Origin: an uncultured Lentisphaeraceae bacterium
Lineage (GTDB): Bacteria; Verrucomicrobiota; Kiritimatiellia; RFP12; DVOR01
Assembly: GCA_937892925.1 (NCBI GenBank)
Contig: CALBHX010000028.1
Span: 3,392-67,391, forward strand
Reading direction: 5' to 3'
DNA length: 64,000 bases
Under the pieces are notes generated by a model that was not told the origin of the DNA, did no database searches, and saw nothing but the letters and a program-made list of their open reading frames with translations. A program made the translations under genes and the position numbers. Numbering within the stretch: the first letter of the stretch is position 1; every line of letters starts with the position of its first letter. Shown here in pieces: positions 23,525-54,304 of this stretch.

Positions 23525-24157
23525 GTGTGATTCGCTCTGAATGTCATCGACAAGGTCTTGGAACTGTCTGGTTCGTGTAACCGACACATCTGAACATCAT
23601 TCTGGAAAAATTGAAATCGCGGGGGCGTTAAAACCTGAATTCCCCGCCACAAGGAACCAGCATCCATAAACAAGGGTACGCTGCCTCCAGGGCATTACAC
23701 CGTTCGGAACCGTATCGTCCTCTCATATTCAGAACACCCACCGTTTTACAACAGGTAGACCATCGATACGCGTGCGATGGATGCCTGTCTGAACGCTGGC
23801 ATATACCATACAGACAGAAAGAAAAAACCTTTATGTCCCCGATCGAGCGAACATCGTTGTAGCCCCATATAATACAACGTTACGATGCGCTTCAAACACC
23901 GCTTAGCCTCGCCCTCACACATCCCCATTTCTGCGGCAACAACGCATTCATTTAAGCCGAACCGTTCACCTGTGTCAGCGATTTCAACCCGTACAAAACC
24001 AAAAACAACCTGTTGGCCACGCGTCTCTCTCTCTCACCAACCTCCTCCTCTAAACGATCTCTTCAAGCCTGTCGATTCATTGAGGTATCACTCAAGTGCC
24101 CAAACAGCCCTTCAAACACACCTCTCCCCTCAAACAGACGCCCCGCCAATATACGCC

Positions 24158-24191
24158 AAAATCCGGAGGCACATATAACGCCTCCGGATTT
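24158..24191. terminator. rho-independent terminator downstream of the histone-like dksA gene
   Basis: Perfect 11-bp inverted repeat AATCCGGAGGC-N9-GCCTCCGGATT flanked by A-run and T-run, 37 nt past the minus-strand stop at 24228. Confidence 0.7.
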
Positions 24192-24227
24192 ATTATCCAA
24201 CCTCAGCAACAACACTCCGTGCTCTTC

Positions 24228-25334
24228 CTACGCGTTCTGCTGTCGCCGATTCTTTGCCTCCTTCTTCTTCGCCTCATACTCTGTTTTGCACTTTACACAA
24301 CGGATGGCAAAAGGATATGACTTCAGACGATCACGCGTAATAAGGCAGCCGCAGACCTGACAAATACCGTACGTTTTCTCTTTGATAGCGGTCAAAGCAT
24401 CATTCACCGAATTGAGCTGATCCTGAAGATCATTTGCCCGATTCAAATCTGCCGTACGAGTAAAGGTGTTCGTGCCATCCTCCTCCACGTTCTCCTCATC
24501 AGCCCGGCTCAACGCTTCGCCACGAATCGCACGCTGACGGCGGAGAATCTCTTCTCGACGCTCCAACAACCGCAGCTTGAAATCCTCTAAATCCGCATCG
24601 CTGAATCGCTGTTTCCCCCCCTTTGGGAAGCGTGTACTTCCCTGCGCAGCTCTTTTTCCCAACACTGCACTCGGTTTGATGACCGGATAACGCGGCTGTA
24701 AATGTGTTACAGGCTTCGCCGAAACCGAAACAGCCTTGTCCGACGTTCCGGTTGGCTTGGACAAGGCTTTTTTGGCAGGAACAGCCTTGATGGCCGTCTT
24801 CTTTTCAGCAGCCGCGGTGGTTTTTGGAGCTTCAACACGCTTCTTCACAGAAGCTCCGGCCTTTGATGCAGACTTCGCCGTTACCTTTTCATCCACCTTT
24901 TTGGCCGATGCTTTAGCAACCCCCTTGGATGCCGCAATCTTCTTTGCCGGGACTTCCTTCTTGGCCGACACCACGGACTTTTTAACCACAGCCACCGTTT
25001 TTTTCACGGCAGACTTCGCCGCAGGCTTAACCCCAGAAGATTTTTTCACCGCGGCCGGCTTTTTTCCCCCTGCAACCGCCTTCACCGGTTGTTTTTTTAC
25101 AGCTGTCTGCAACACCGACTTCTTCGCTGTGAGAACTTTAGCGGCCGGCTTTTTCACACCAGCCGTTTTGCTCGAACCGGAGGCCGAAGTCTTCTTGACT
25201 GCGGAGGCACCCAAAGACGTCTTTACGGAAGGAGATTTCGCGGCGGTTTTCCCCGAACTCTTTTTCACCGAGGCTTTTTTCTCTTTCGGGGCGGATGTCT
25301 TTTTTGACACAGGCTTTTTAGTGGTGGTTGCCAT
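24228..25334 (-). CDS. histone H1-like Lys/Ala-rich N-terminal domain fused to a DksA/TraR-family C4 zinc finger
   Basis: About 190 aa of KKxA/AKK repeats, then a DksA-like coiled-coil region and CQVCGCLITRDRLKSYPFAIRCVKC (Cx2Cx17Cx2C). ATG 25334 has GAGGAGG 9 nt upstream. Confidence 0.7.
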   Translation of the reverse strand: MATTTKKPVSKKTSAPKEKKASVKKSSGKTAAKSPSVKTSLGASAVKKTSASGSSKTAGVKKPAAKVLTAKKSVLQTAVKKQPVKAVAGGKKPAAVKKSSGVKPAAKSAVKKTVAVVKKSVVSAKKEVPAKKIAASKGVAKASAKKVDEKVTAKSASKAGASVKKRVEAPKTTAAAEKKTAIKAVPAKKALSKPTGTSDKAVSVSAKPVTHLQPRYPVIKPSAVLGKRAAQGSTRFPKGGKQRFSDADLEDFKLRLLERREEILRRQRAIRGEALSRADEENVEEDGTNTFTRTADLNRANDLQDQLNSVNDALTAIKEKTYGICQVCGCLITRDRLKSYPFAIRCVKCKTEYEAKKKEAKNRRQQNA

Positions 25335-25593
25335 AATGCAGAACCTCCTCAAGATGAGCATCATGTCACGCAGATGCGGCAGTTGTCGGGCCCTCCCTCA
25401 CAACCCCAACATGTTATCAAAAACGGCCCCCTTTATGCAAGACTTCTCACACGTCAAGCCAGGCAGAAAACCCGCCTGCCTCCTCGTCCGAAAGTTCATC
25501 TGCTTTGTCAAAACACGTTTCAATCCACACCTTTAGGTTCCGATGCCGCCCAGCGCCACCCATCCAGCGAATATATGCTATCATGCCCATACC

Positions 25594-26973
25594 ATGCGCG
25601 TTGCCTTCTGTTATCCGCCCATTCCCTCCGCCAAAGGCGTCCCTCTGCTTTCTCAAAACCGGCAGTTTCAGTGGTTCAGCAGGCCTACGGCCATTTATCC
25701 CGTTGTCCCTGCCAGCGCCGCCACCCTGCTCAAAAACCGCGGCTATGACGTACTCTGGCTAGATGGCATCGCACAACAGCTCTCGCCAGAAGCCTATTGG
25801 GAACGCCTCTGTGCCTGGAAGCCCGAGGTTGTCTTTCTCGAAACCAAAACGCCTGTGGTCCATTTCCATTGGCGTTGGGTTCAGGAACTCAAGCAGCGGC
25901 TCCCCGCCTGCCGCGTGGTTCTGGCAGGCGATCACGTCACAGCCCTTCCTGAAGAGACCCTTGCCGCCGCCCCGGTCGATGCTGTTCTGCACGGCGGCGA
26001 TTACGATTTTTCCCTGCTTGCCTGGTTGGAAAAGCGCCCCGTTTCCATCGATCTTGCAGCGCTTCCTCTCATCGACCGCACCCTGACGCGATGGAAAGAC
26101 TACGCCTTCAGTAACGGAAACTTTCTGCAGACCCCAGGAGCTTACATCATGGCTGGGCGCGACTGTTGGCACGGCAAATGTACATTCTGTTCTTGGACCA
26201 CTCTCTACCCGACCTATCGTATCCGCCCCGTTGAAACCGTTTTGGATGAAGTCGGTATGCTGATCCGCCTAGGAGCAAAAGAAATTATGGATGACACCGG
26301 GAGCTTCCCCATTGGGAGCTGGCTGCACACGTTCTGCGAAGGCATGATCGCTCGCGGTTACCACCGGCGTGTCCGAATGAACTGCAATCTGCGATTCGGC
26401 GCCCTTCATGAGGCAGACTATCGTCTCATGCGCAAAGCTGGCTTCCGCATGATACTCTTTGGCGTAGAATCCGCAAACGCCGAGACGTTAGCACGCCTGA
26501 ACAAAGGGCTTTCCCCGGAACAAATCGTGCAAGGCGCCCGCATGGCCTCCGCTGCGGGGCTGGACGTTCACATTACCCTGATGTTCGGCTATCCTTGGGA
26601 AACCCTTGAAGATGCCCGGCGCACGGTAGCCCTTGGCCGCGACCTCCTGCGCCGGGGATACGCCGCCACCCTTCAAGCCACCTGGCTCGTTCCCTACCCC
26701 GGAACACCCCTCTTTCGCGAACTCAAAGCCTCCGGCCAGCTCCTCACCGAAAACTGGGACGCTTACGACATGCGCGCCCCCGTCATGCGTTCTCCCCTCT
26801 CCGAAGCAGACATCCGCCGTCTGATTTCCGAGGCCTACCGAAGCCATCTCCAACCCCAAGTTCTCCTCCGCCAAGCAGTACGCGCACTCCTTCACCCAAC
26901 CTATCTGCAAAAAAGTTTCCGTGCGCTTACCGGTCATTTACGCGACTTCCGTCAATCCCCATCCATCACCTAA
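25594..26973 (+). CDS. B12-binding-domain radical SAM protein
   Basis: N-terminal B12-binding-like domain (MRVAFCYPP..., VVLAGDHVTALPEE) and a radical-SAM cysteine cluster in GRDCWHGKCTFCSW. Start taken at ATG 25594. Confidence 0.55.
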   Translation: MRVAFCYPPIPSAKGVPLLSQNRQFQWFSRPTAIYPVVPASAATLLKNRGYDVLWLDGIAQQLSPEAYWERLCAWKPEVVFLETKTPVVHFHWRWVQELKQRLPACRVVLAGDHVTALPEETLAAAPVDAVLHGGDYDFSLLAWLEKRPVSIDLAALPLIDRTLTRWKDYAFSNGNFLQTPGAYIMAGRDCWHGKCTFCSWTTLYPTYRIRPVETVLDEVGMLIRLGAKEIMDDTGSFPIGSWLHTFCEGMIARGYHRRVRMNCNLRFGALHEADYRLMRKAGFRMILFGVESANAETLARLNKGLSPEQIVQGARMASAAGLDVHITLMFGYPWETLEDARRTVALGRDLLRRGYAATLQATWLVPYPGTPLFRELKASGQLLTENWDAYDMRAPVMRSPLSEADIRRLISEAYRSHLQPQVLLRQAVRALLHPTYLQKSFRALTGHLRDFRQSPSIT

Positions 26974-27000: not shown

Positions 27001-27594
27001 CTACCGCAACCGAAACGCACAATCGTAAATCGGATCGCCTTTCGACCGGAATAACAATTCAAAATCCGTCTGCTCATCCTCTGAGCGAACTAACGGCGCA
27101 ATCGCCTCAAACCGCACATCCTCCGAAAGATAGCGCTGCATCTCACGAAAATAATCTGCGTGATCCGTTGAAATATAAATTGCACCGCCCGGAATCAAAA
27201 TCCGCGCCAACACCTCACACATCTCCCGCTGAAAAAACCGATTCTTATGATGTCGCCGCTTCGGCCAGGGATCCGGGAAAAAGAGATACATGGCATGAAC
27301 AGAAGCCGGCGGCAACAACTCCCGGACAAACCGCCCCGCTTCCACTCGAACAAACAGCAGATTCTCCAGCGCCCCCTGCTTTGCCTTTTTGGAGCATTTG
27401 CGCAAACGCTCCATCATCCGTTCCACCCCAAGGTAAAACTGTTTCGGGTGTTTCGCCGCATTCGCCGCCAAGAAACGTCCGTTCCCGCATCCAATTTCAA
27501 TTTCCAGCGGCATGCCGGCTGGAACATATGCCGAGAGATCAAATACGTTATCTGCTTCTTTCAGTTCAACCACATGAGGCAACAAATCATTCAT
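27001..27594 (-). CDS. trmB: tRNA (guanine46-N7)-methyltransferase
   Basis: IEIGCGNGRFL SAM-binding motif and FFPDPWPKRRHHKNRF, typical of TrmB. Confidence 0.85.
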   Translation of the reverse strand: MNDLLPHVVELKEADNVFDLSAYVPAGMPLEIEIGCGNGRFLAANAAKHPKQFYLGVERMMERLRKCSKKAKQGALENLLFVRVEAGRFVRELLPPASVHAMYLFFPDPWPKRRHHKNRFFQREMCEVLARILIPGGAIYISTDHADYFREMQRYLSEDVRFEAIAPLVRSEDEQTDFELLFRSKGDPIYDCAFRLR

Positions 27595-27857
27595 GTTTCA
27601 AGTATACCACATTTTCGCTCATCAGCCGCCCCAACCTCAGAAGCCCCACACCCCTACCCCTTCAGAATCCCAACCACGACAGCAGCATTCCTCTATCTTT
27701 CCGGAATACGGGATCGACCAATCCGACCCTCACAACCTCAAATCCTTTTCTATGATGCAGCCTCACACTCCGCACGCGTGGACGAATCGAGCTTCAATGG
27801 GTGACACACTGAACAGTTGAAACGTTTTTCCATAACTCTAACCCTGAAATCAAAGAA

Positions 27858-27889
27858 ACAGGAGGGCGCGGAATTCCCGCGCCCTCCTG
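27858..27889. terminator. rho-independent terminator downstream of rpoC
   Basis: 13-bp inverted repeat CAGGAGGGCGCGG-GAATTC-CCGCGCCCTCCTG; the minus-strand transcript follows it with a U-rich tract. Confidence 0.65.
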
Positions 27890-27914
27890 TTTTTAGAGAT
27901 GCTTGCGCCCCCGC

Positions 27915-30900
27915 TCAGTTGATCTCCGGCTCATCACCGGATGCATCCGTTTCCGAGACCTGCGGAACCGGAATGAGATCAGAAAGCGCATCCGTATCGG
28001 AAACCAACTCCTCTTCGGGAATTTCAATCGCATCCGTTGAGATACCGTTCGCATCCTTCTTGCCGTAAACAGCATCCATCTCATCCTGTGAGATCGGTGT
28101 GCCCAAGGGCACCATCTTGATATAACGATGCATCGGGAAGCCCGTGCCGCCGGGAATCAGATGGCCGAGAATGACATTCTCCTTGAACCCTCGCAGCTCA
28201 TCCACACGTCCCATGGTAGAAGCTTCGGTGAGGACACGTGTGGTGTCCTGGAAGGATGCTGCGGAGATGAAAGAATCCGTCTCCAGCGAGGCCTTGGTGA
28301 TACCCAGCAGAATGGGATTACCAACGGCCTTACATTTGCCCTCTCGGCCCACGCGCTCGTTGGTTTCCTCATAAACGTGCCGGGACACCTGCTCGCCATA
28401 GAGGAAATCGGTATCTCCGGGAGAATCAATGCGGACCTTACGAAGCATCTGGCGGATAATGATCTCAATGTGCTTGTCGTTGATCTGCACTTCCTGCAGA
28501 CGATAGACCTGCTGCACCTCATTCACCAGATACCGTTGGAGCTCCTGCGGGCCGCAGACCTCCAGGATGTCCTGCGGAGAAATCGAGCCCTCCGTGAGAG
28601 GCTGCCCGCGCTTAACATGGTCGCCTTTATAGACTACCACCTGCGTAGAGAGCGGAATCAAATGGCGCTCAGACATTTTGGTGATGGGATCGCTGACCAC
28701 CAGCACACGCTTACCGCGCTCATTCTCAGCAAAGTCGATGATGCCGTCAATATGCGAGATCTCGGCCACATCCTTTGGCGTACGCGCTTCGAAAAGTTCG
28801 GCCACGCGAGGCAGACCGCCCGTGATGTCGTGCGTCTTGTTTTCACCACGCGGCGTCTTAGCCAACGTCTCACCAGGTCTGACCACGGCGCCATTAGCCA
28901 CCATCACACTGGCTCCTGCCGGAATGGTATAGACATCGGCAGTCTTCAACTGCGTGATATCAACGGTTGCAGGGTCAGCGCCTTCGGGCAGCGTCTTGAC
29001 AACGAGGCGCGGGTGGAGCTTCGTACGCGACTCAATGACCACACGCATCCGAGCCCCGGAAGTCTCGTCAATCTTGGAGACCACCGTGATGCCCTCTTCG
29101 AAGTCTTCTTCCACCACCAGGCCCGCCACATCGGTAATAATCGGCACAGAGTGCGGATCCCATACAGCGAGCTTATCGCCCTTCGCAATTTTCCCATTGT
29201 CAGGAACGAACAACGTAGAGCCCATCTGAATGGAATATTCCACCAGCGTATTGCCCTTCTCGTCCGAAATGGTAATGGAGCCGTTACGGTTGAGTACAAT
29301 AATCGAACCGTCCTCCGCGCGAACTGTGCGCAGGTCGTGATAGTGCACCACACCGCCAGTCGTTACCTGGATCTCGGAACTCTCCGCCAACGTGGAAGCC
29401 GTACCGCCAACGTGGAACGTACGCATCGTCAGCTGTGTGCCCGGCTCACCAATGGACTGCGCAGCAATGATTCCAACAGCGGTGCCGATTTCAACCGTTT
29501 TACCCGTAGAGAGGTCTCGCCCATAGCACTTAGCGCACATACCATGTTTACAAGCGCACGTAAGGCCGGAACGGATGGAAACGCGCTCAATACCGGCAGC
29601 CTCAATGCGTTTGGCTTTGGCCTCGTCAATTTCTTCATTGGCTTCAACGATGACTTCACCGGTCTTCGGGTCGCAGATTTCGCTGAGTGCGGTGCGGCCG
29701 ATAATACGCTTGGCAAGCGAGAGCTTTACTTCGTTGCCTTCGACCACGGCCTCCACGTCAATACCAGAAACCGTATTGCAATCCTGCTGCGTGATAATGA
29801 CATCTTGCGCCACGTCCACAAGCTTACGCGTCATGTAGCCGGCATCTGCCGTCTTCAACGCCGTATCGGCCAGACCCTTACGGGCGCCGTGAGAAGAAAT
29901 GAAGTATTCGAGCACCGAGAGGCCTTCGCGGAAGGAGGCGGTAATCGGCGTTTCAATAATTTCACCGTTCGGCTTAGCCATCAAGCCGCGCATACCGGCC
30001 AACTGGCGGATCTGCGTCCGCGAACCACGCGCCTTGGAATCTGCCATCATGTAAATGGGGTTGATATCCGTAGGCTTGTCGTTATCCGGAGAAATATTCT
30101 GCTCAATGGTCTTGTAGAGCGAATCGGCAATTCGTTCAGTGGCAGAGGACCAGATATCCGTAATCTTACCCTTCCGTTCACCTTCGGTGATGATACCCTG
30201 CTTGAACTGTTTGGTAACCTTCGCCACCTCCTTCTCAGAGGCTTCCAGGATTTTATCCTTATCCTTCGGGCGAATCATGTCCTTGATGCCCATCGATGCG
30301 CCGGACTGGCAAGCCCATTCAAAGCCAAGGGCTTTCAGTTTATCCAGCATCTCAATCGTCCGGTCGTGGCCGACCGTCTGGTGACAGGAGACGATCAGCT
30401 TGCCCAATGTGGACTTCGTAACCTTCTCGTTGAAGAAGCCCATTTCTGCAGGCCACACTTCATTAAAGATGACGCGCCCCACAAGCGTAACGATCACCTT
30501 GGCCGTAGGATCGCCGTTCTTCCGTTCAGGTTTCCCGTAATCGGGGTTCTTGAACCAGATGCGGTCATGAACTTTCAGGGCACCATCATTAAAGGCCAGC
30601 ATCACTTCGTCTGTTGAGCCAAAAAGCGGCAAACGATCCTTGATTGGATCGGGCGCAACCCCCTTGCCCAACGGCTTTCCAGCGTTTTTATCCGCCTGCG
30701 AAGGCACCGTGAGGAAGTAGCACCCCAGAGCAATATCCTGCGTCGGCGTCTTGTTGGAATCGCCACTTGCGGGAGAGAAAATCGAGTTGGTCGAGAGCAT
30801 CAACAGCCGACTTTCCAGCTGCGCTTCCACCGAAAGCGGCACATGCACAGCCATCTGGTCACCATCGAAGTCCGCATTGAACGGCGTGCAGACCATCGGA

Positions 30901-32255
30901 TGCAGCCGAATCGCTTCACCCTCAATCAGCACCGGTTCAAACGACTGAATCGAAAGGCGGTGCAGCGTGGGCGCACGGTTCAGCATCACCGTCTTGCCCT
31001 TCGTTACCTCTTCGAGGATATCCCAGACTTCCGGCTTCTGCTGCTCAATCATCTTCTTTGCCGTACGCACCGTATGGCAAAGCCCCAGCTCCTTCAGCCG
31101 GCGAATGATAAACGGCTCGAAAAGCGTCAGAGCCATCTTCTTCGGCAAGCCGCACTGATGCAGCTTCAGATGCGGCCCAACCACAATAACCGAACGGCCG
31201 GAGTAGTCTACGCGCTTGCCCAGCAGGTTCTGGCGGAAACGCCCCGTTTTACCCTTCAGCATGTCGCTGAGAGACTTCAGGGGGCGGCTTCCAGCACCGG
31301 CTACCGCACGCCCATGGCGGCCATTGTCAAAAACCGCATCCACCGCTTCCTGAAGCATCCGCTTTTCATTACGGATAATCACATCCGGCGTCTTCAGAAG
31401 AAGCAAATTCCGCAACCGATTGTTACGATTGATCACCCGGCGATACAAATCATTCAGGTCAGACGTCGCAAAACGCCCGCCTTCCAACGGCACCAACGGG
31501 CGGAGCTCCGGCGGGATCACCGGCAACGCTTCCAAGATCATCCATTCGGGCTTCGCGCCGGATGCACGGAACCCTTCAACGATCTTCATGCGCTTCGTGA
31601 TTTTTTTCTTATTCTGCTTGGACTTGGTGTTCTCGATCTCCTCTTCAAGCTTGGCCATCAGCTCGTCCAGATCGATGCGCCGCAAGCAGGTTCGGATCAC
31701 TTCCGCGCCCATGCCCGCCTCAAAGGCCTCCGCGCCGTACTTGGAGACCGCCTCGTTGTATTCGGCTTCCGAAAGCAGCTGATTTTCCTTCAGCGGCGTT
31801 TCTCCCGGATCCGTAACCAGATAGTCTTCGTAATACAACACGCGCTCAAGCACCGTACTGGACAGATCCAGGATCGCGCCGATGCGGCTTGGATTGCACT
31901 TGAAGAACCAGATATGGCTCACCGGAACCGCCAGCTCAATATGCCCCATCCGCTCACGGCGAACACGCGCCTGCGTCACCTCCACGCCGCAGCGATCGCA
32001 GATGATGCCTTTATGCTTGATGCGCTTATATTTGCCGCACGCGCATTCCCAGTCCTTCGTCGGGCCGAAAATACGTTCGCAAAATAACCCATCGCGCTCC
32101 GGGCGATACGAGCGATAGTTGATGGTTTCCGGGTTTTTCACTTCACCGTGCGACCATCCGCGGATGGTCTCGGGCGAGGCAAGCGTGATACTCACCGCGT
32201 CATACTGTGCATTGGCGGGAAGCTTAAACATTTCCTTTGTGGCGTAAGCACTCAC
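27915..32255 (-). CDS. rpoC: DNA-directed RNA polymerase beta' subunit
   Basis: 1446 aa with conserved [12 protein letters not shown] catalytic motif, zinc-binding CxxC motifs and other conserved beta' regions. Confidence 0.97.
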
Positions 32256-32273
32256 TGGAAAAACCTCCGGGGA

Positions 32274-35200
32274 TTAGTGGGTCAGAGAAGGAGAAGAAGG
32301 GACATTTGCAGTCATGGAGGCCATTGTCACCTCCGGCTCCGACGGCTCCGGGCCGCCCAGCAACCGCATGTCTAGGCACAAACCGCGCAATTCACTCACC
32401 AACACGGAGAACGATTCCGGCGTGCCGGCCTCCAACGTATTGGAGCCCTTCACAATCGTCTCGTAGATGCGCGTCCGCCCGACCACATCGTCGGACTTCA
32501 CAGTCAGAAGCTCCTGCAGCGCATAGGCCACGCCATACGCTTCCAGAGCCCACACTTCCATCTCGCCCATACGCTGGCCGCCCGCCTGAGCTTTACCGCC
32601 CAGCGGCTGCTGCGTAACAAGCGAATAGGGCCCTGTCGCACGCGCATGGATCTTGTCCGTCACCAGGTGGTGAAGCTTGAGCATGTAGATGGTTCCCACT
32701 ACCACACGCTGGCTGAACGGTTCACCCGTCAAGCCATCGAACAGCTGCGTTTTGCCATCCGCGCTGATCCAGGGCACCGAACCCGGAGCCTGGTTGTCTT
32801 CCTGATGCTTTCGAGCCTTCGCCAGCAGCGCATCGATCTCGCTTTCCTGGCATCCATCAAAGACCGGTGTTTTCACATGCATGCCGAGCTCCGAACAAGC
32901 CCCGCCCAAAACCGTTTCAAAGAGCTGCCCAAGGTTCATACGGGAAGGCACGCCCAAGGGATTCAGCACAATATCCACCGAGCGGCCATCCGGCAAGAAC
33001 GGCATGTCGCAATCCGGCAGGATACGCGAAACAACACCCTTGTTACCGTGGCGGCCGGCCAGCTTGTCGCCCACCGAGAGATTCTTTTTCTCAGCGATGA
33101 ATACGCGTACCTGCTTTACCACGCGCTCCTCATCCACCAGGCTCTCGCCGCCAACACCCTCGATGCCGATCATATCCAGCTCGGCAAACTTGGGGGCAAA
33201 ACGCGCCACCACATCCTCGATCTGCTCCTGCGCAACCGGGAACTCTACCTCTTGCAGGTGGTCATGCGCCTCGGCCAGCTTGGCCAGCAGGGTCTTGGTA
33301 ATTTTCCGGTTCTTCGGGATAATGATATCCCCCGTCTCAGCGTCCAATACATCCACCGGAAGCTTCTCGTTCAGGAAGCAGTCGCTGAATGCCTTGGCCA
33401 TCTCGTCCAGCAATTGCGCCTCACGCCGCTTACGCTGATCTTCCACCTTGCGGGAATCCATTTCAGCAGCATTCCCCGGCAGCGCAGCATCGTCCAGATA
33501 CGACTCCACACTGTCGCCATCGTCCATCAAGGCAATCCTTTCGGCCTTGCTCTTTTTGGTTGCGCGCGGCGTCAAGCTGGTATCTGCGTTCGTCACGCGC
33601 ACATCCATGACAATACCCTTCGTCCCTGGCGGAACCTTGAGCGAGGTATCGCGCACATCGGCGGCTTTTTCGCCGAAAATAGCGCGAAGCAGCCGCTCTT
33701 CCGGAGCCAGTTCCGTTTCACTTTTCGGGGTAATTTTGCCCACTAGGATGTCGCCTGGCTTCACCTCGGCACCAATGCGAATCACACCGTCTGTGCCGAG
33801 ATTTCGAAGCATGTCTTCGCCCACGTTGGGGATATCGCGCGTGATCTCTTCCGGCCCAAGCTTGGTATCGCGGGCACCCACTTCAAAATCTTTAATGTGA
33901 ATCGATGTAAAGGTGTCGTTCTTCACACACCGTTCATTGATCAGAATCGCGTCTTCGAAGTTAAATCCGCGCCATGGCATGAAGGCCACCAGCAGGTTCT
34001 TGCCCAACGCCAACTCGCCGTCGTCCGTTGCCGGGCCGTCGGCCAGCGTCTGCCCCTTCTTGACCGCCTGCCCAAGGCTGACGATCGGCTTCTGATTCAC
34101 GCACGTACCGGCATTGGAACGGCGGAACTTCTCAAGCACATACCGGCGGCATCCGGGCACCTTTTCGCCCTTGCGCACCCGCGGCGGGCACTTGCCATCC
34201 TTGGAGACCACGATTTCTGTGGCCGACACATAGGCCACAATACCGTCTTCTTCCGCCAGCACCGTCACACAGCTGTCAGCAGCCGCAATGCCTTCAAGCC
34301 CCGTGCCCACACGCGGACGCTCCGTCCGCATGAGCGGCACGCCCTGGCGCATCATGTTCGCACCCATCAGGGCACGGTTTGCGTCGTCATGCTCCAGGAA
34401 CGGAATCAACCCGGCAGCGATCGAAATCACCTGCATCGGGCTCACATCCATCAGGTCAATCGCATCCGGCGCAGCTGTGGTGAACTCTCCGCGCTCGCGC
34501 ACCTTAACCGTAGCGTTGACAAACCGCCCATTCGCATCCAGGGGCGCATTCGCCTGCGCAATCACGTGCTTCTCCTCTTCATCGGCATCGATGTAGAGGA
34601 TCTCATCGGTTACACGCCCATCTTTCACCACACGGTAAGGCGTTTCAATAAAGCCATACGCATTGATCTTAGCGTAGATGCCCAGCGATGAAATCAACCC
34701 GATGTTCGGGCCTTCCGGCGTCTCAATCGGGCAAATACGGCCATAGTGCGTGGGATGCACGTCGCGCACTTCGAATCCGGCGCGCTCACGCGACAAGCCG
34801 CCCGGCCCCAATGCGGACAACCGGCGCTTGTGCGCCAAAGCCGACAGCGGATTGGTCATATCCATGAACTGGCTCAACTGGCTCCGCCCGAAGAAATCCT
34901 GAATCACCGCGGAAAGGCTCTTGGACGTGACCAGCTTGATCGGCGACAAAACGGCATTCTGCGTGCTCGGATCATACGTGCTCATCCGCTCACGGATCAA
35001 CCGCTCCGTACGGGCCAGCCCCACTCGGCAGGCATTTTCAAGCAATTCACCTGTGGTGCGGATACGACGGTTGCCCAAATGGTCAATATCATCCACATGT
35101 TCACGCCCCGCAGAGATATTCAGCAGCAGACGCAGGGCTTCCACCACCTCAATCCCGTCATCCGAGAGCACACGCAGATTCAAATCCACCTTGTTCATCA

Positions 35201-36242
35201 GCCCCAGGCGCTGATTCACTTTGTAGCGCCCCACATAGCCCAAGTCGTACCGGCGCTGATCAAAGAACTGCGAATGAACATAAGCCCGCGCATTTGCCGC
35301 CGTCATGGGATCACCCGGGCGCAGCCGATGATAGATATCCTTCACGGCCTCTTCTTCGCTGTGCGTCGGATCGGCCTTAATCGTTTTCAGGAGCAGCCCC
35401 TTGTCAAACGAAGTATCCACCACATCAAAGAAGGGAATCCCTGCGCGCGCGGCCAGATCCACCACCGCCGGCGTCACGGGGTCGTACCGCCGCGCCAACA
35501 CCGAGCCGGAGTTCAGGTCAATCAAATCGTCCTTGAGCACATAACTCGTCAGCTCCTCATCCGTCCAGCGGTCTTTCGTCGAAACCGAATGGAAGTTGTA
35601 GTACAGCTTGAGGATATCCTCATCCGAACCATACCCCAGCGTCCGCAGAAAAGTGGTTACATAAAACTTACGCGCCCGGCGCCGGCGATCCAGGTAAACC
35701 CACATCGCGTCCGATGTGTCAAACTGAATTTCAATCCACGAACCATGATCCGGAATAATACGAACCGAGTAAAGGTCGTGCCCGTTGGCATGCTGCGTTT
35801 TCTCCGAACACACCCCGGGGCTGCGGTGCAGCTGCGAAACAATCACCCGCTCGGCGCCATTGATAATGAAGGCGCCATCACGCGTCATCAGCGGGATCTC
35901 ACCCAGATAGACATCGTCTTCGCGCACCTCATCGCCGTCTTTCAGGCGAAACGTTGCATGCAGCGGAGCCGAAAACGTATCCCCGTCGCGAAGCGCCTCA
36001 AACGCCGTCTTTTTGGGTTTCTCCAGATTGTAGCGCACGAAGTCGATCGTAAAGCGCCCATCCTTCGACACCACCGGGAACACTTCCCGGAAAATTGCCT
36101 GAAGCCCCTTGTTCTGACGCTTTCCCGCACTCACATCCGCTTGCAGAAAATCCGCAAAAGACTGCGTCTGAATCTCGATCAGGTTTGGCGGCTGAATAGG
36201 CGCCTTCAATTTCCCGAACACGTAATCCTTGTCTCTGGCCAT
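32274..36242 (-). CDS. rpoB: DNA-directed RNA polymerase beta subunit
   Basis: 1322 aa with conserved beta motifs (rifampicin cluster region, GGQRMGEMEVWALEAYG); 18 nt upstream of rpoC. Confidence 0.97.
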   Translation of the reverse strand: MARDKDYVFGKLKAPIQPPNLIEIQTQSFADFLQADVSAGKRQNKGLQAIFREVFPVVSKDGRFTIDFVRYNLEKPKKTAFEALRDGDTFSAPLHATFRLKDGDEVREDDVYLGEIPLMTRDGAFIINGAERVIVSQLHRSPGVCSEKTQHANGHDLYSVRIIPDHGSWIEIQFDTSDAMWVYLDRRRRARKFYVTTFLRTLGYGSDEDILKLYYNFHSVSTKDRWTDEELTSYVLKDDLIDLNSGSVLARRYDPVTPAVVDLAARAGIPFFDVVDTSFDKGLLLKTIKADPTHSEEEAVKDIYHRLRPGDPMTAANARAYVHSQFFDQRRYDLGYVGRYKVNQRLGLMNKVDLNLRVLSDDGIEVVEALRLLLNISAGREHVDDIDHLGNRRIRTTGELLENACRVGLARTERLIRERMSTYDPSTQNAVLSPIKLVTSKSLSAVIQDFFGRSQLSQFMDMTNPLSALAHKRRLSALGPGGLSRERAGFEVRDVHPTHYGRICPIETPEGPNIGLISSLGIYAKINAYGFIETPYRVVKDGRVTDEILYIDADEEEKHVIAQANAPLDANGRFVNATVKVRERGEFTTAAPDAIDLMDVSPMQVISIAAGLIPFLEHDDANRALMGANMMRQGVPLMRTERPRVGTGLEGIAAADSCVTVLAEEDGIVAYVSATEIVVSKDGKCPPRVRKGEKVPGCRRYVLEKFRRSNAGTCVNQKPIVSLGQAVKKGQTLADGPATDDGELALGKNLLVAFMPWRGFNFEDAILINERCVKNDTFTSIHIKDFEVGARDTKLGPEEITRDIPNVGEDMLRNLGTDGVIRIGAEVKPGDILVGKITPKSETELAPEERLLRAIFGEKAADVRDTSLKVPPGTKGIVMDVRVTNADTSLTPRATKKSKAERIALMDDGDSVESYLDDAALPGNAAEMDSRKVEDQRKRREAQLLDEMAKAFSDCFLNEKLPVDVLDAETGDIIIPKNRKITKTLLAKLAEAHDHLQEVEFPVAQEQIEDVVARFAPKFAELDMIGIEGVGGESLVDEERVVKQVRVFIAEKKNLSVGDKLAGRHGNKGVVSRILPDCDMPFLPDGRSVDIVLNPLGVPSRMNLGQLFETVLGGACSELGMHVKTPVFDGCQESEIDALLAKARKHQEDNQAPGSVPWISADGKTQLFDGLTGEPFSQRVVVGTIYMLKLHHLVTDKIHARATGPYSLVTQQPLGGKAQAGGQRMGEMEVWALEAYGVAYALQELLTVKSDDVVGRTRIYETIVKGSNTLEAGTPESFSVLVSELRGLCLDMRLLGGPEPSEPEVTMASMTANVPSSPSLTH

Positions 36243-43288: not shown

Positions 43289-43362
43289 TGCCTCATGGTG
43301 TAACGGTAGCACAACTGACTCTGGATCAGTTTGTCAAGGTTCGAATCCTTGTGAGGCAACCA
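43289..43362 (+). tRNA. tRNA-Gln (anticodon CUG)
   Basis: Cloverleaf read by eye: acceptor TGCCTCA/TGAGGCA (U1-A72 as in bacterial tRNA-Gln), anticodon stem ACTGA/TCAGT with loop CTCTGGA, T-arm AAGGTTCGAATCCTT, and 3' ACCA. Confidence 0.8.
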
Positions 43363-54216: not shown

Positions 54217-54304
54217 GGAGAGGTGGCAGAGCGGTCGAATGCGGCGGTCTTGAAAACCGTTGAATCGCAAGATTCCGGGGGTTCGAATCCCTCCCTCTCC
54301 GCCA
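54217..54304 (+). tRNA. tRNA-Ser (anticodon UGA), class II with long variable arm
   Basis: Acceptor GGAGAGG/CCTCTCC, anticodon stem GCGGT/ACCGT with loop CTTGAAA, long variable arm, T-arm GGGGGTTCGAATCCCTC, and 3' GCCA. Confidence 0.85.

Follow-up and report, generated by a model that had tools for sequence, protein, structure and literature searches.

A DksA/TraR-family protein with a long polycationic N-terminal tail in a Kiritimatiellia genome: a probable bipartite transcription factor of DdbA type

The window analysed here is a stretch of 64,000 nucleotides from an uncultured Lentisphaeraceae bacterium of the Kiritimatiellia (assembly GCA_937892925.1, contig CALBHX010000028.1, positions 3,392 to 67,391 of the forward strand). 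At window positions 24228-25334 its minus strand carries a gene whose 368-residue product joins a long, strongly basic N-terminal tail to a DksA/TraR-family module. The gene opens with an ATG at 25334 and closes with the stop codon at 24228-24230. The features of the gene and its immediate flanks are listed below in window coordinates, with the evidence for each in brackets.

24228..25334, minus strand: DksA/TraR-family gene with a polycationic N-terminal tail, complete, 368 codons plus stop (open reading frame, ORF, and its translation)
25344..25350, minus strand: Shine-Dalgarno-like GAGGAGG, 9 nt 5' of the ATG at 25334 (read from the sequence)
24720..25334, minus strand: polycationic Lys/Ala/Ser/Val-rich tail, residues 1-205 (composition, predicted disorder and degenerate xxxKK repeats)
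24606..24719, minus strand: linker between tail and core, residues 206-243 (holds a clade-conserved motif)
24669-24701, minus strand: linker motif L-Q-P-R-Y-P-V-I-K-P-S, residues 212-222 (conserved in the alignment of relatives)
24375..24605, minus strand: antiparallel coiled-coil hairpin, residues 244-320 (AlphaFold2, Foldseek and profile matches)
24474..24500, minus strand: acidic hairpin tip D-E-E-N-V-E-E-D-G, residues 279-287 (column counts and profile alignment to 1tjl)
24273..24374, minus strand: C4 zinc finger, residues 321-354 (C325-x2-C328-x17-C346-x2-C349; Pfam PF01258)
24231..24272, minus strand: end of the basic C-terminal helix, residues 355-368 (AlphaFold2 helix 347-367, predicted local distance difference test score, pLDDT, above 90)
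24159..24191, minus strand: hairpin, probable terminator (12-bp perfect inverted repeat, 24159-24170 / 24180-24191, with a 9-nt spacer)

The C-terminal part of the protein is a genuine DksA/TraR-family module, an assignment on which profile matches, the predicted structure and the similarity to solved DksA chains agree. Pfam PF01258, the DksA/TraR C4 zinc finger, matches residues 321-354 with 34.8 bits, above its cut-off of 24.9, and the cysteines at positions 325, 328, 346 and 349 form a Cx2Cx17Cx2C finger with the same spacing as in the aligned E. coli DksA chain. The AlphaFold2 model, run with a 42-sequence alignment, is confident from residue 246 onwards with pLDDT mostly above 90, and its core of about residues 244-368 comprises helices 246-280, 283-318 and 347-367. 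The first two helices form a DksA-like coiled coil, and the C-terminal helix aligns with its counterpart in E. coli DksA. On this predicted structure the elements that define DksA, namely a hairpin, a zinc-binding globular part and a C-terminal helix, are all present. The top Foldseek matches of the core against the PDB are all DksA or DksA2 (4ijj with a template modelling, TM, score of 0.79, followed by 1tjl, 7khi, 5vsw and 6ptg), with TM scores of 0.66-0.82 normalised to the targets, and some of the E. coli DksA targets lie inside RNA polymerase complexes. Single-sequence matches to solved DksA reach E values of 7.6e-10 (6ptg) and 3e-5 (1tjl), while family-profile matches extend from 1e-24 to 4e-16 (6ptg 1e-24, 4ijj 2e-18, 1tjl 1e-16). 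The best NCBIfam matches, over residues 246-358, are DksA_like, yteA and dksA. The original prediction, made from the letters of the window without database searches, had placed both the DksA-like coiled coil and the Cx2Cx17Cx2C finger in this half and had proposed a profile search as its check; both features were borne out, and the profile search matched.

No acidic patch is better conserved in the family, as judged from 42 relatives, than the tip of the hairpin, residues 279-287. The tip columns hold Glu or Asp at position 284 in 37/42 relatives, Glu or Asp at 285 in 40/42, Asp or Glu at 286 in 38/42 and Gly at 287 in 40/42. In the profile alignment to 1tjl, E285 falls at the position of D74 and G287 at that of A76, and E284 lies near D71 with a two-residue deletion beside D71. 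The same register is obtained when the tip is counted from the conserved anchors L249 and Y322, and the AlphaFold2 model breaks the helix at residues 281-282.

The N-terminal region differs sharply in character. Residues 1-200 contain 27% Lys, 20% Ala, 13% Ser and 12% Val; Glu occurs just five times in them and their net charge is +48, and residues 1-240 carry a net charge of +55; the Pro content of the tail is only 6%. In the AlphaFold2 model residues 1-240 have pLDDT values of 42-56 and no secondary structure, except for a rise in block 211-220. The tail holds 18 KK doublets and 16 [ASVTGP]KK motifs, and its basic residues come either singly or in pairs, with three or more other residues in between. 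Accordingly, basic residues at lags of 2 and 3 are found only 2 and 1 times against about 14.5 expected, while lag 5 is enriched. These spacing statistics show a repeat that is degenerate and roughly pentapeptide-like rather than strict, and Tandem Repeats Finder (TRF) reports no tandem repeat in the tail DNA. The original prediction of about 190 residues of Lys-Ala repeats therefore stands as to the strongly basic, repetitive character of the region, although the tail runs to about residue 205 and the repeat is looser than described. The likeness to histone H1, AlgP and the chlamydial Hc proteins that was claimed at the same time holds for composition, disorder and charge, but not for motifs. 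The 368-residue protein has no match to Pfam HC2 (PF07382, cut-off 40 bits) even at E<=1, the tail contains no S/TPKK-type motif (0 [ST]PxK) and no KPAA tandem repeat of the AlgP type. On sequence grounds the likeness of the tail to H1 and AlgP is thus compositional only. Among the relatives described below, HC2 scores of the tails are 41.7 (P0099), 33.8 (P0111) and 26.4 (P0087) against the same cut-off.

Between tail and core, the linker motif of residues 212-222, which can be followed through residue 223 as LQPRYPVIKPS(A) at 24666-24701 of the minus strand, coincides with the block 211-220 in which pLDDT rises to about 70. The corresponding pattern, [LI]xP[KRN]Yxhh[RHK]P[SKT]G, lines up across every Kiritimatiellia-type relative, short-tailed ones included. 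It may match E-P-Y-Q-E-K-P-G, a Pro/Tyr/Gly-containing stretch near the N-terminus of E. coli DksA, just upstream of the part aligned here.

The gene itself is well delimited at its 5' end. GAGGAGG at 25344-25350 bears out the strong ribosome-binding site that had been predicted, and the N-terminus read from 25334, MATTTKK, resembles that of nearly all relatives (MATKK, MATTKK, MSTKSKK). An in-frame ATG lies upstream at 25364; since the MAT(T)KK N-termini of the relatives fit the 25334 start, initiation at 25364 is unlikely. The perfect-stem terminator claimed for the gene is upheld in part. The hairpin begins 37 nt beyond the stop codon, its 12-bp inverted repeat is perfect, and RNA folding gives a 13-pair stem with a minimum free energy of -34.8 kcal/mol for the segment (z = -2.6). 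However, the U-run on the strand of the gene is only UUUU, three of these U lie within the stem, and a consensus terminator scan did not call the hairpin at 24159-24191; the consensus promoter/terminator scan likewise returned nothing useful at either end of the gene. The hairpin is probably a terminator with a weak U-tract on the strand of the gene. Of the two strands, the plus strand has the better T-rich run (TTTATTAT, compared with TTTTGG on the strand of the gene), and the hairpin might work bidirectionally between the convergent genes. On the plus strand, antisense to the Lys/Ala-rich tail, there is also a Phe/Ala-rich ORF of 266 residues (24736-25536) that could be mis-annotated as a gene; it is a shadow of the low-complexity coding strand and no gene.

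Low-complexity coding DNA is prone to assembly and annotation errors, and the 266-residue shadow ORF is a reminder of it, so the fusion could in principle be a mis-assembled region, a protein with a wrong start or two merged genes. The original prediction had itself pointed to mis-assembly of the repeat region as a danger. This concern is dispelled by several observations. The identical 1107-nt gene is present, with identical neighbours, in six independent assemblies from different samples, and three variants of 98-99% identity keep the length of 368 residues. The DNA contains no tandem repeat, the frame is unbroken and has a ribosome-binding site and a family-typical MATTKK start, and more than 100 independent homologues share the architecture. 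The mis-assembly and wrong-start readings are ruled out by the assemblies, the variants, the TRF result and the conserved N-termini, and an artefact of any of these kinds deserves practically no credence. The variants also carry information on the tail, where all 10 of the 10 changed codons are located, with none in the core; seven of the changes are non-synonymous and none affects a Lys. This pattern fits a tail that is constrained for charge and composition and not for its exact sequence.

A search with the full-length protein retrieved 483 homologues at E<=1e-3, and nearly all of the best 120 have K/A/P-rich tails; this search is biased by tail words. A core-only search, which is free of that bias, was therefore made. 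Run as an exhaustive HMMER search of 1.84 billion cluster representatives, it gave 6294 matches at E<=1e-3, and a basic N-terminal tail of at least 40 residues is present in 121 of the best 150 of these cluster representatives. A scan of GTDB species genomes, seeded with 12 close cores and for that reason mostly confined to Kiritimatiellia, found 20 metagenome-assembled genomes (MAGs) of Kiritimatiellia type from gut samples (Ca. Spyradenecus; buffalo, yak, sheep and deer bins) and one Marinimicrobia MAG. Tails of about 90-350 residues occur at about 18 Kiritimatiellia-type loci or species genomes. These matches place the source of the window among gut-dwelling Kiritimatiellia. Tailed forms are also found in Kribbella (Actinomycetota), with over 100 clusters, and in Bacteroidota such as Niabella, where the finger is without cysteines; a Kribbella-seeded search returned only Kribbella proteins among its best 120 matches. 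The taxonomic survey that had been suggested as a check of the fusion thus places it in Kiritimatiellia, Kribbella and Bacteroidota. NCBI and JGI list the relatives as TraR/DksA or DksA proteins. The closest core match in the genome collection (64% identity) lies on a 9.7-kb contig (L001, CAVDHG010000076.1) of a MAG labelled Agathobacter rectalis (Firmicutes), and this contig is probably mis-binned. In seven Bacteroidota-type proteins (P0083, P0099, P0112-P0115 and P0119) CRVTG...PHAT replaces CxxC...CxxC and the zinc cysteines are lost. This cysteine-less subfamily includes both long K/A/P-tailed and tail-less proteins, and the chlamydial DksA 6ptg likewise lacks the zinc-binding cysteines.

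Within this family the presence of a tail is labile. Tail length among relatives ranges from 0 to about 350 residues, and many short, tail-less family members also appear in the profile search. In Bacteroidota, tail-less proteins of 125 residues and tailed proteins of 338 residues have a core identity of 70%, and in Kiritimatiellia proteins of 159 residues with a short extension are 61-75% core-identical to the tailed P0012 of 234 residues. Tail length varies even inside clusters of at least 90% identity (P0026 and P0020); the P0026 cluster has members of 348 and 296 residues. Such variation within clusters suggests frequent in-frame expansion and contraction of the tails. Two Ca. Spyradenecus species (L015 and L016) have tails of about 340 residues with a net charge near +90. 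A further relative, P0126 (166 residues, 58% core identity, on a single 2.5-kb metagenome contig), was considered as a swap of the DNA-binding module and rejected; in it the first 72 residues of an HU-HIG DNA-binding domain, half of that domain, run into the middle of coiled-coil helix 1, and it is probably a chimera of assembly or recombination.

The fusion is not a new kind of protein. Full-text searches turned up one paper with this architecture, on the 'Dks-like DNA-binding protein' DdbA (SCO2075) from Streptomyces coelicolor (Aldridge et al. 2013, Nucleic Acids Research, PMC3643593). In DdbA, 93 residues make up the H1-like N-domain, which is followed by a DksA-like C-domain; DNA is shifted in electrophoretic mobility shift assays by the N-domain and by the whole protein, whereas the C-domain alone does not shift it, and atomic force microscopy shows DNA condensed by the N-domain (PMC3643593). 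In a DdbA mutant nucleoid condensation and supercoiling are altered, and overexpressing the complete DdbA protein, unlike overexpressing its N-domain by itself, suppresses a relA phenotype (PMC3643593). Orthologues of DdbA, and its N-terminal half, were stated to be confined to streptomycetes (PMC3643593). The Kiritimatiellia protein has the same order as DdbA in its published description, a basic Lys/Ala-rich N-region followed by a DksA-like four-cysteine C-domain, with tail 1-205 and DksA core 244-368 fused in one polypeptide. The repeats are alike too: the S/T-A/T-A-K-K pentapeptides of DdbA resemble the degenerate xxxKK pattern here, in which 16 x-K-K motifs occur and basic residues most often lie about 5 apart. 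The two differ in detail. The tail of DdbA has 93 residues, in contrast to the tail of about 205 residues, richer in Ser and Val, found here; DdbA is from Actinomycetota and the present protein from Kiritimatiellia, a member of the PVC (Planctomycetes-Verrucomicrobia-Chlamydiae) group; and DdbA reportedly retains Asp at the equivalents of both D71 and D74, in contrast to the Glu found here at the D74 position. Among the tailed actinobacterial relatives that were compared, the nearest is Kribbella P0111, with a core identity of only about 33%. Given how readily tails are gained and lost, an independent origin of the Kiritimatiellia and Streptomyces fusions is plausible.

The canonical DksA proteins (E. 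coli 1tjl, 5vsw and 7khi; P. aeruginosa DksA2 4ijj; Chlamydia trachomatis 6ptg) display the same hairpin, globular part and C-terminal helix. In contrast, the matched solved chains have only 112-151 residues and no room for a long tail, their tip reads D-x-x-D-R-A where the Kiritimatiellia protein has E-E-D-G, and K98 and R129 of E. coli DksA are replaced by Ser and Tyr. The chlamydial DksA 6ptg is the closest solved relative by sequence, a match consistent with the PVC-group origin of the contig. The same design is known from myxobacterial CarD, which combines an RNA-polymerase-interacting CarD_CdnL_TRCF domain with a basic DNA-binding domain of HMGA type (PMC2919716). Like the present protein, CarD unites a small polymerase-binding module with a basic, low-complexity, eukaryote-like DNA-binding region; it differs in that its module is unrelated and binds the beta subunit rather than the secondary channel, its basic domain is C-terminal and it is found only in myxobacteria. 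In some species, CarD is said to have an H1-like version, as reportedly noted by García-Heras et al. in 2009. For the tail alone, chlamydial Hc1/Hc2 (PF07382) and Pseudomonas AlgP and PhaF are comparable, being K/A-rich with some Pro, disordered and very positive, but they are without a DksA module. AlgP, an H1-like protein with KPAA repeats and a net charge of +55, the same as residues 1-240 here, is located on polyphosphate granules, whose spacing requires the repeat domain (PMC9239181).

The gene is chromosomal, lies among housekeeping genes (rpoB, rpoC, trmB and Mla genes) and is not in a mobile element. In the six assemblies it always stands between a B12-radical-SAM gene and mlaD-mlaF-mlaE, near trmB and rpoC. 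In the window the block of rpoB, rpoC and trmB spans 27001-36242 on the minus strand; rpoB and rpoC (32274-36242 and 27915-32255) end about 2.6 kb from the DksA-like gene and are separated from it by trmB (27001-27594) and the B12-binding radical SAM gene (25543-26973, plus strand). Nearness to the polymerase genes is seen in all contigs of the source species, but not at other Kiritimatiellia loci. Neither tblastn with MlaF, MlaD, B12-radical SAM, TrmB and RpoC against 21 related loci nor all-against-all ORF clustering found a partner gene shared beyond strain level. As there is no conserved neighbourhood, functional inference from an operon was dropped. Between the convergent mlaD and DksA-like genes extends a gene-free spacer of about 700 bp (23525-24227). 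It contains no convincing ORF, gene callers on public contigs likewise call nothing there, and it differs between strains at only 4 of 700 positions, compared with 10 changed codons in the 615-nt tail. Rfam scans of the window and of the spacer gave only two distant transfer RNAs (tRNAs) and a chance microRNA match; the tRNA genes, at 43289-43359 and 54217-54301 on the plus strand, are the only Rfam matches of the window above the gathering score.

Taken together, these features favour, with moderate confidence, a gene for a bipartite transcription factor of DdbA type, with a polymerase-binding DksA core and a DNA-binding tail. By homology with DksA, the zinc-finger globular part of the core would dock on RNA polymerase at the rim of its secondary channel, and the coiled-coil hairpin would insert its acidic tip, E284-E285-D286-G287, toward the active site and so modulate initiation. 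By analogy with DdbA, AlgP/PhaF and H1, the disordered tail of about +48 would bind DNA by charge and without sequence preference. It might thereby hold the factor at the nucleoid or give the complex of polymerase and factor a further contact with DNA, and local DNA packing would in this way be coupled to polymerase regulation. The role of a nucleoid-associated RNA polymerase regulator, proposed in the original prediction, is the one put forward for DdbA, and the shared architecture lends it support by analogy. Several points weigh against this reading. The NCBIfam equivalog cut-offs lie far above the scores obtained (TIGR02420 40.1 against 115.5, NF033459 56.9 against 105, NF008045 26 against 289). 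Judged from the alignments, the tip is acidic and conserved but without the literal DxxDxA (E. coli D71, D74, A76), with Glu at the D74 position, and conservative changes of D74 impair E. coli DksA. Of the site-2 residues through which E. coli DksA contacts guanosine tetraphosphate (ppGpp) with the beta-prime rim, L95, K98, R129 and K139, the pairwise alignment to 1tjl finds a counterpart for K139 alone (L95-Q306, K98-S309, R129-Y340, K139-K350), and cooperation with ppGpp is therefore doubtful on these sequence grounds. Relatives of 134-159 residues, in which the tail is lost or very short, share 53-75% core identity, and the tail is thus dispensable for the function of the core. Finally, direct binding of DdbA to RNA polymerase was not demonstrated in the 2013 paper (PMC3643593).

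Of the other explanations, the one with most to recommend it, though still unlikely, keeps the role of the core and changes the partner of the tail. The tail would then bind polyphosphate granules or RNA and bring the factor into starvation-induced condensates without being a DNA compactor. A polycation of about +50 cannot distinguish polyanions by its sequence, this tail has no DNA-specific motif and neither an S/TPKK nor an HC2 match, and the granule location of AlgP, with its similar tail, again counts against a tail dedicated to DNA. AlgP-type repeats, however, bind DNA too (PMC9239181), so that the partners are not mutually exclusive; DdbA, the sole tested protein of this architecture, condenses DNA and alters nucleoid and supercoiling in vivo; and no polyphosphate-metabolism gene stands beside the DksA-like gene in the window. 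It is improbable that the tail has no partner at all and is a fast-evolving extension on the ordinary DksA of the lineage, either tolerated or tuning solubility, abundance or turnover. Such an extension would agree with the conservation of composition only, with lengths from 0 to about 350 residues among relatives and of 348 and 296 within one cluster, with the core identity of 70-75% between tailed and tail-less proteins, and with strain substitutions that all fall in the tail, 7 of 10 of them non-synonymous. Against it, 121 of the 150 closest cluster representatives retain a basic tail, which also persists in several phyla, about 20-30% Lys is maintained with almost no acidic residues, and the strain substitutions spare every Lys; the kept charge and the spared Lys suggest that charge is under selection. 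In DdbA, moreover, the equivalent domain is functional in vitro and in vivo.

The core could, conversely, be a zinc finger of DksA/TraR fold with another partner, in a protein that acts mainly as a nucleoid protein. The scores below all NCBIfam DksA equivalog cut-offs and the departures from E. coli DksA at the tip and at the residues aligned with ppGpp contacts speak for such a divergence, and the PF01258 superfamily does include members of less known function, such as YbiI (2kgo, deposited as uncharacterized). Yet the full DksA architecture is predicted confidently, the structures it resembles best are those of true DksA proteins that bind RNA polymerase, few parts of the family are conserved as well as the acidic hairpin tip, and, YbiI aside, all matched solved relatives (DksA, DksA2, TraR) are described as transcription factors or were solved in complex with the polymerase. 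A different partner for the core is accordingly given very little weight. For the DdbA-type reading, the analysis shows the domain identities, the predicted fold and disorder, the conserved architecture and the reality of the gene; polymerase binding, DNA binding and their coupling are inferred.

As the fusion itself was already known, what is new is the breadth of tailed DksA proteins and the lability of their tails. The tails found in Kiritimatiellia, Bacteroidota and Kribbella contradict the confinement of the N-terminal half to streptomycetes. For the gene at 24228-25334 the outcome is mainly a refinement of annotation, from "TraR/DksA zinc finger protein" to "DdbA-like, H1-tail-bearing DksA homologue". 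A wider proposal, offered tentatively and as a speculation, is that polycation-tailed DksA proteins form a large multi-phylum class, standard in Kiritimatiellia and common in Bacteroidota and Actinomycetota, in which the tail has repeatedly been gained, lost and tuned in length. The tail may bring the factor into compartments rich in polyanions (nucleoid, polyphosphate or RNA condensates) and couple polymerase regulation to the state of the chromosome or condensate, a general mechanism that has so far escaped notice. Should the DdbA-like reading be true, secondary-channel regulators with H1-like tails would be widespread, from gut Kiritimatiellia and Bacteroidota to several actinobacterial genera, and the family would offer natural variants, with tails of 0 to about 350 residues on near-identical cores, for probing the role of the tail. 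A link between the state of the nucleoid and the regulation of RNA polymerase would then be a theme of bacteria in general.

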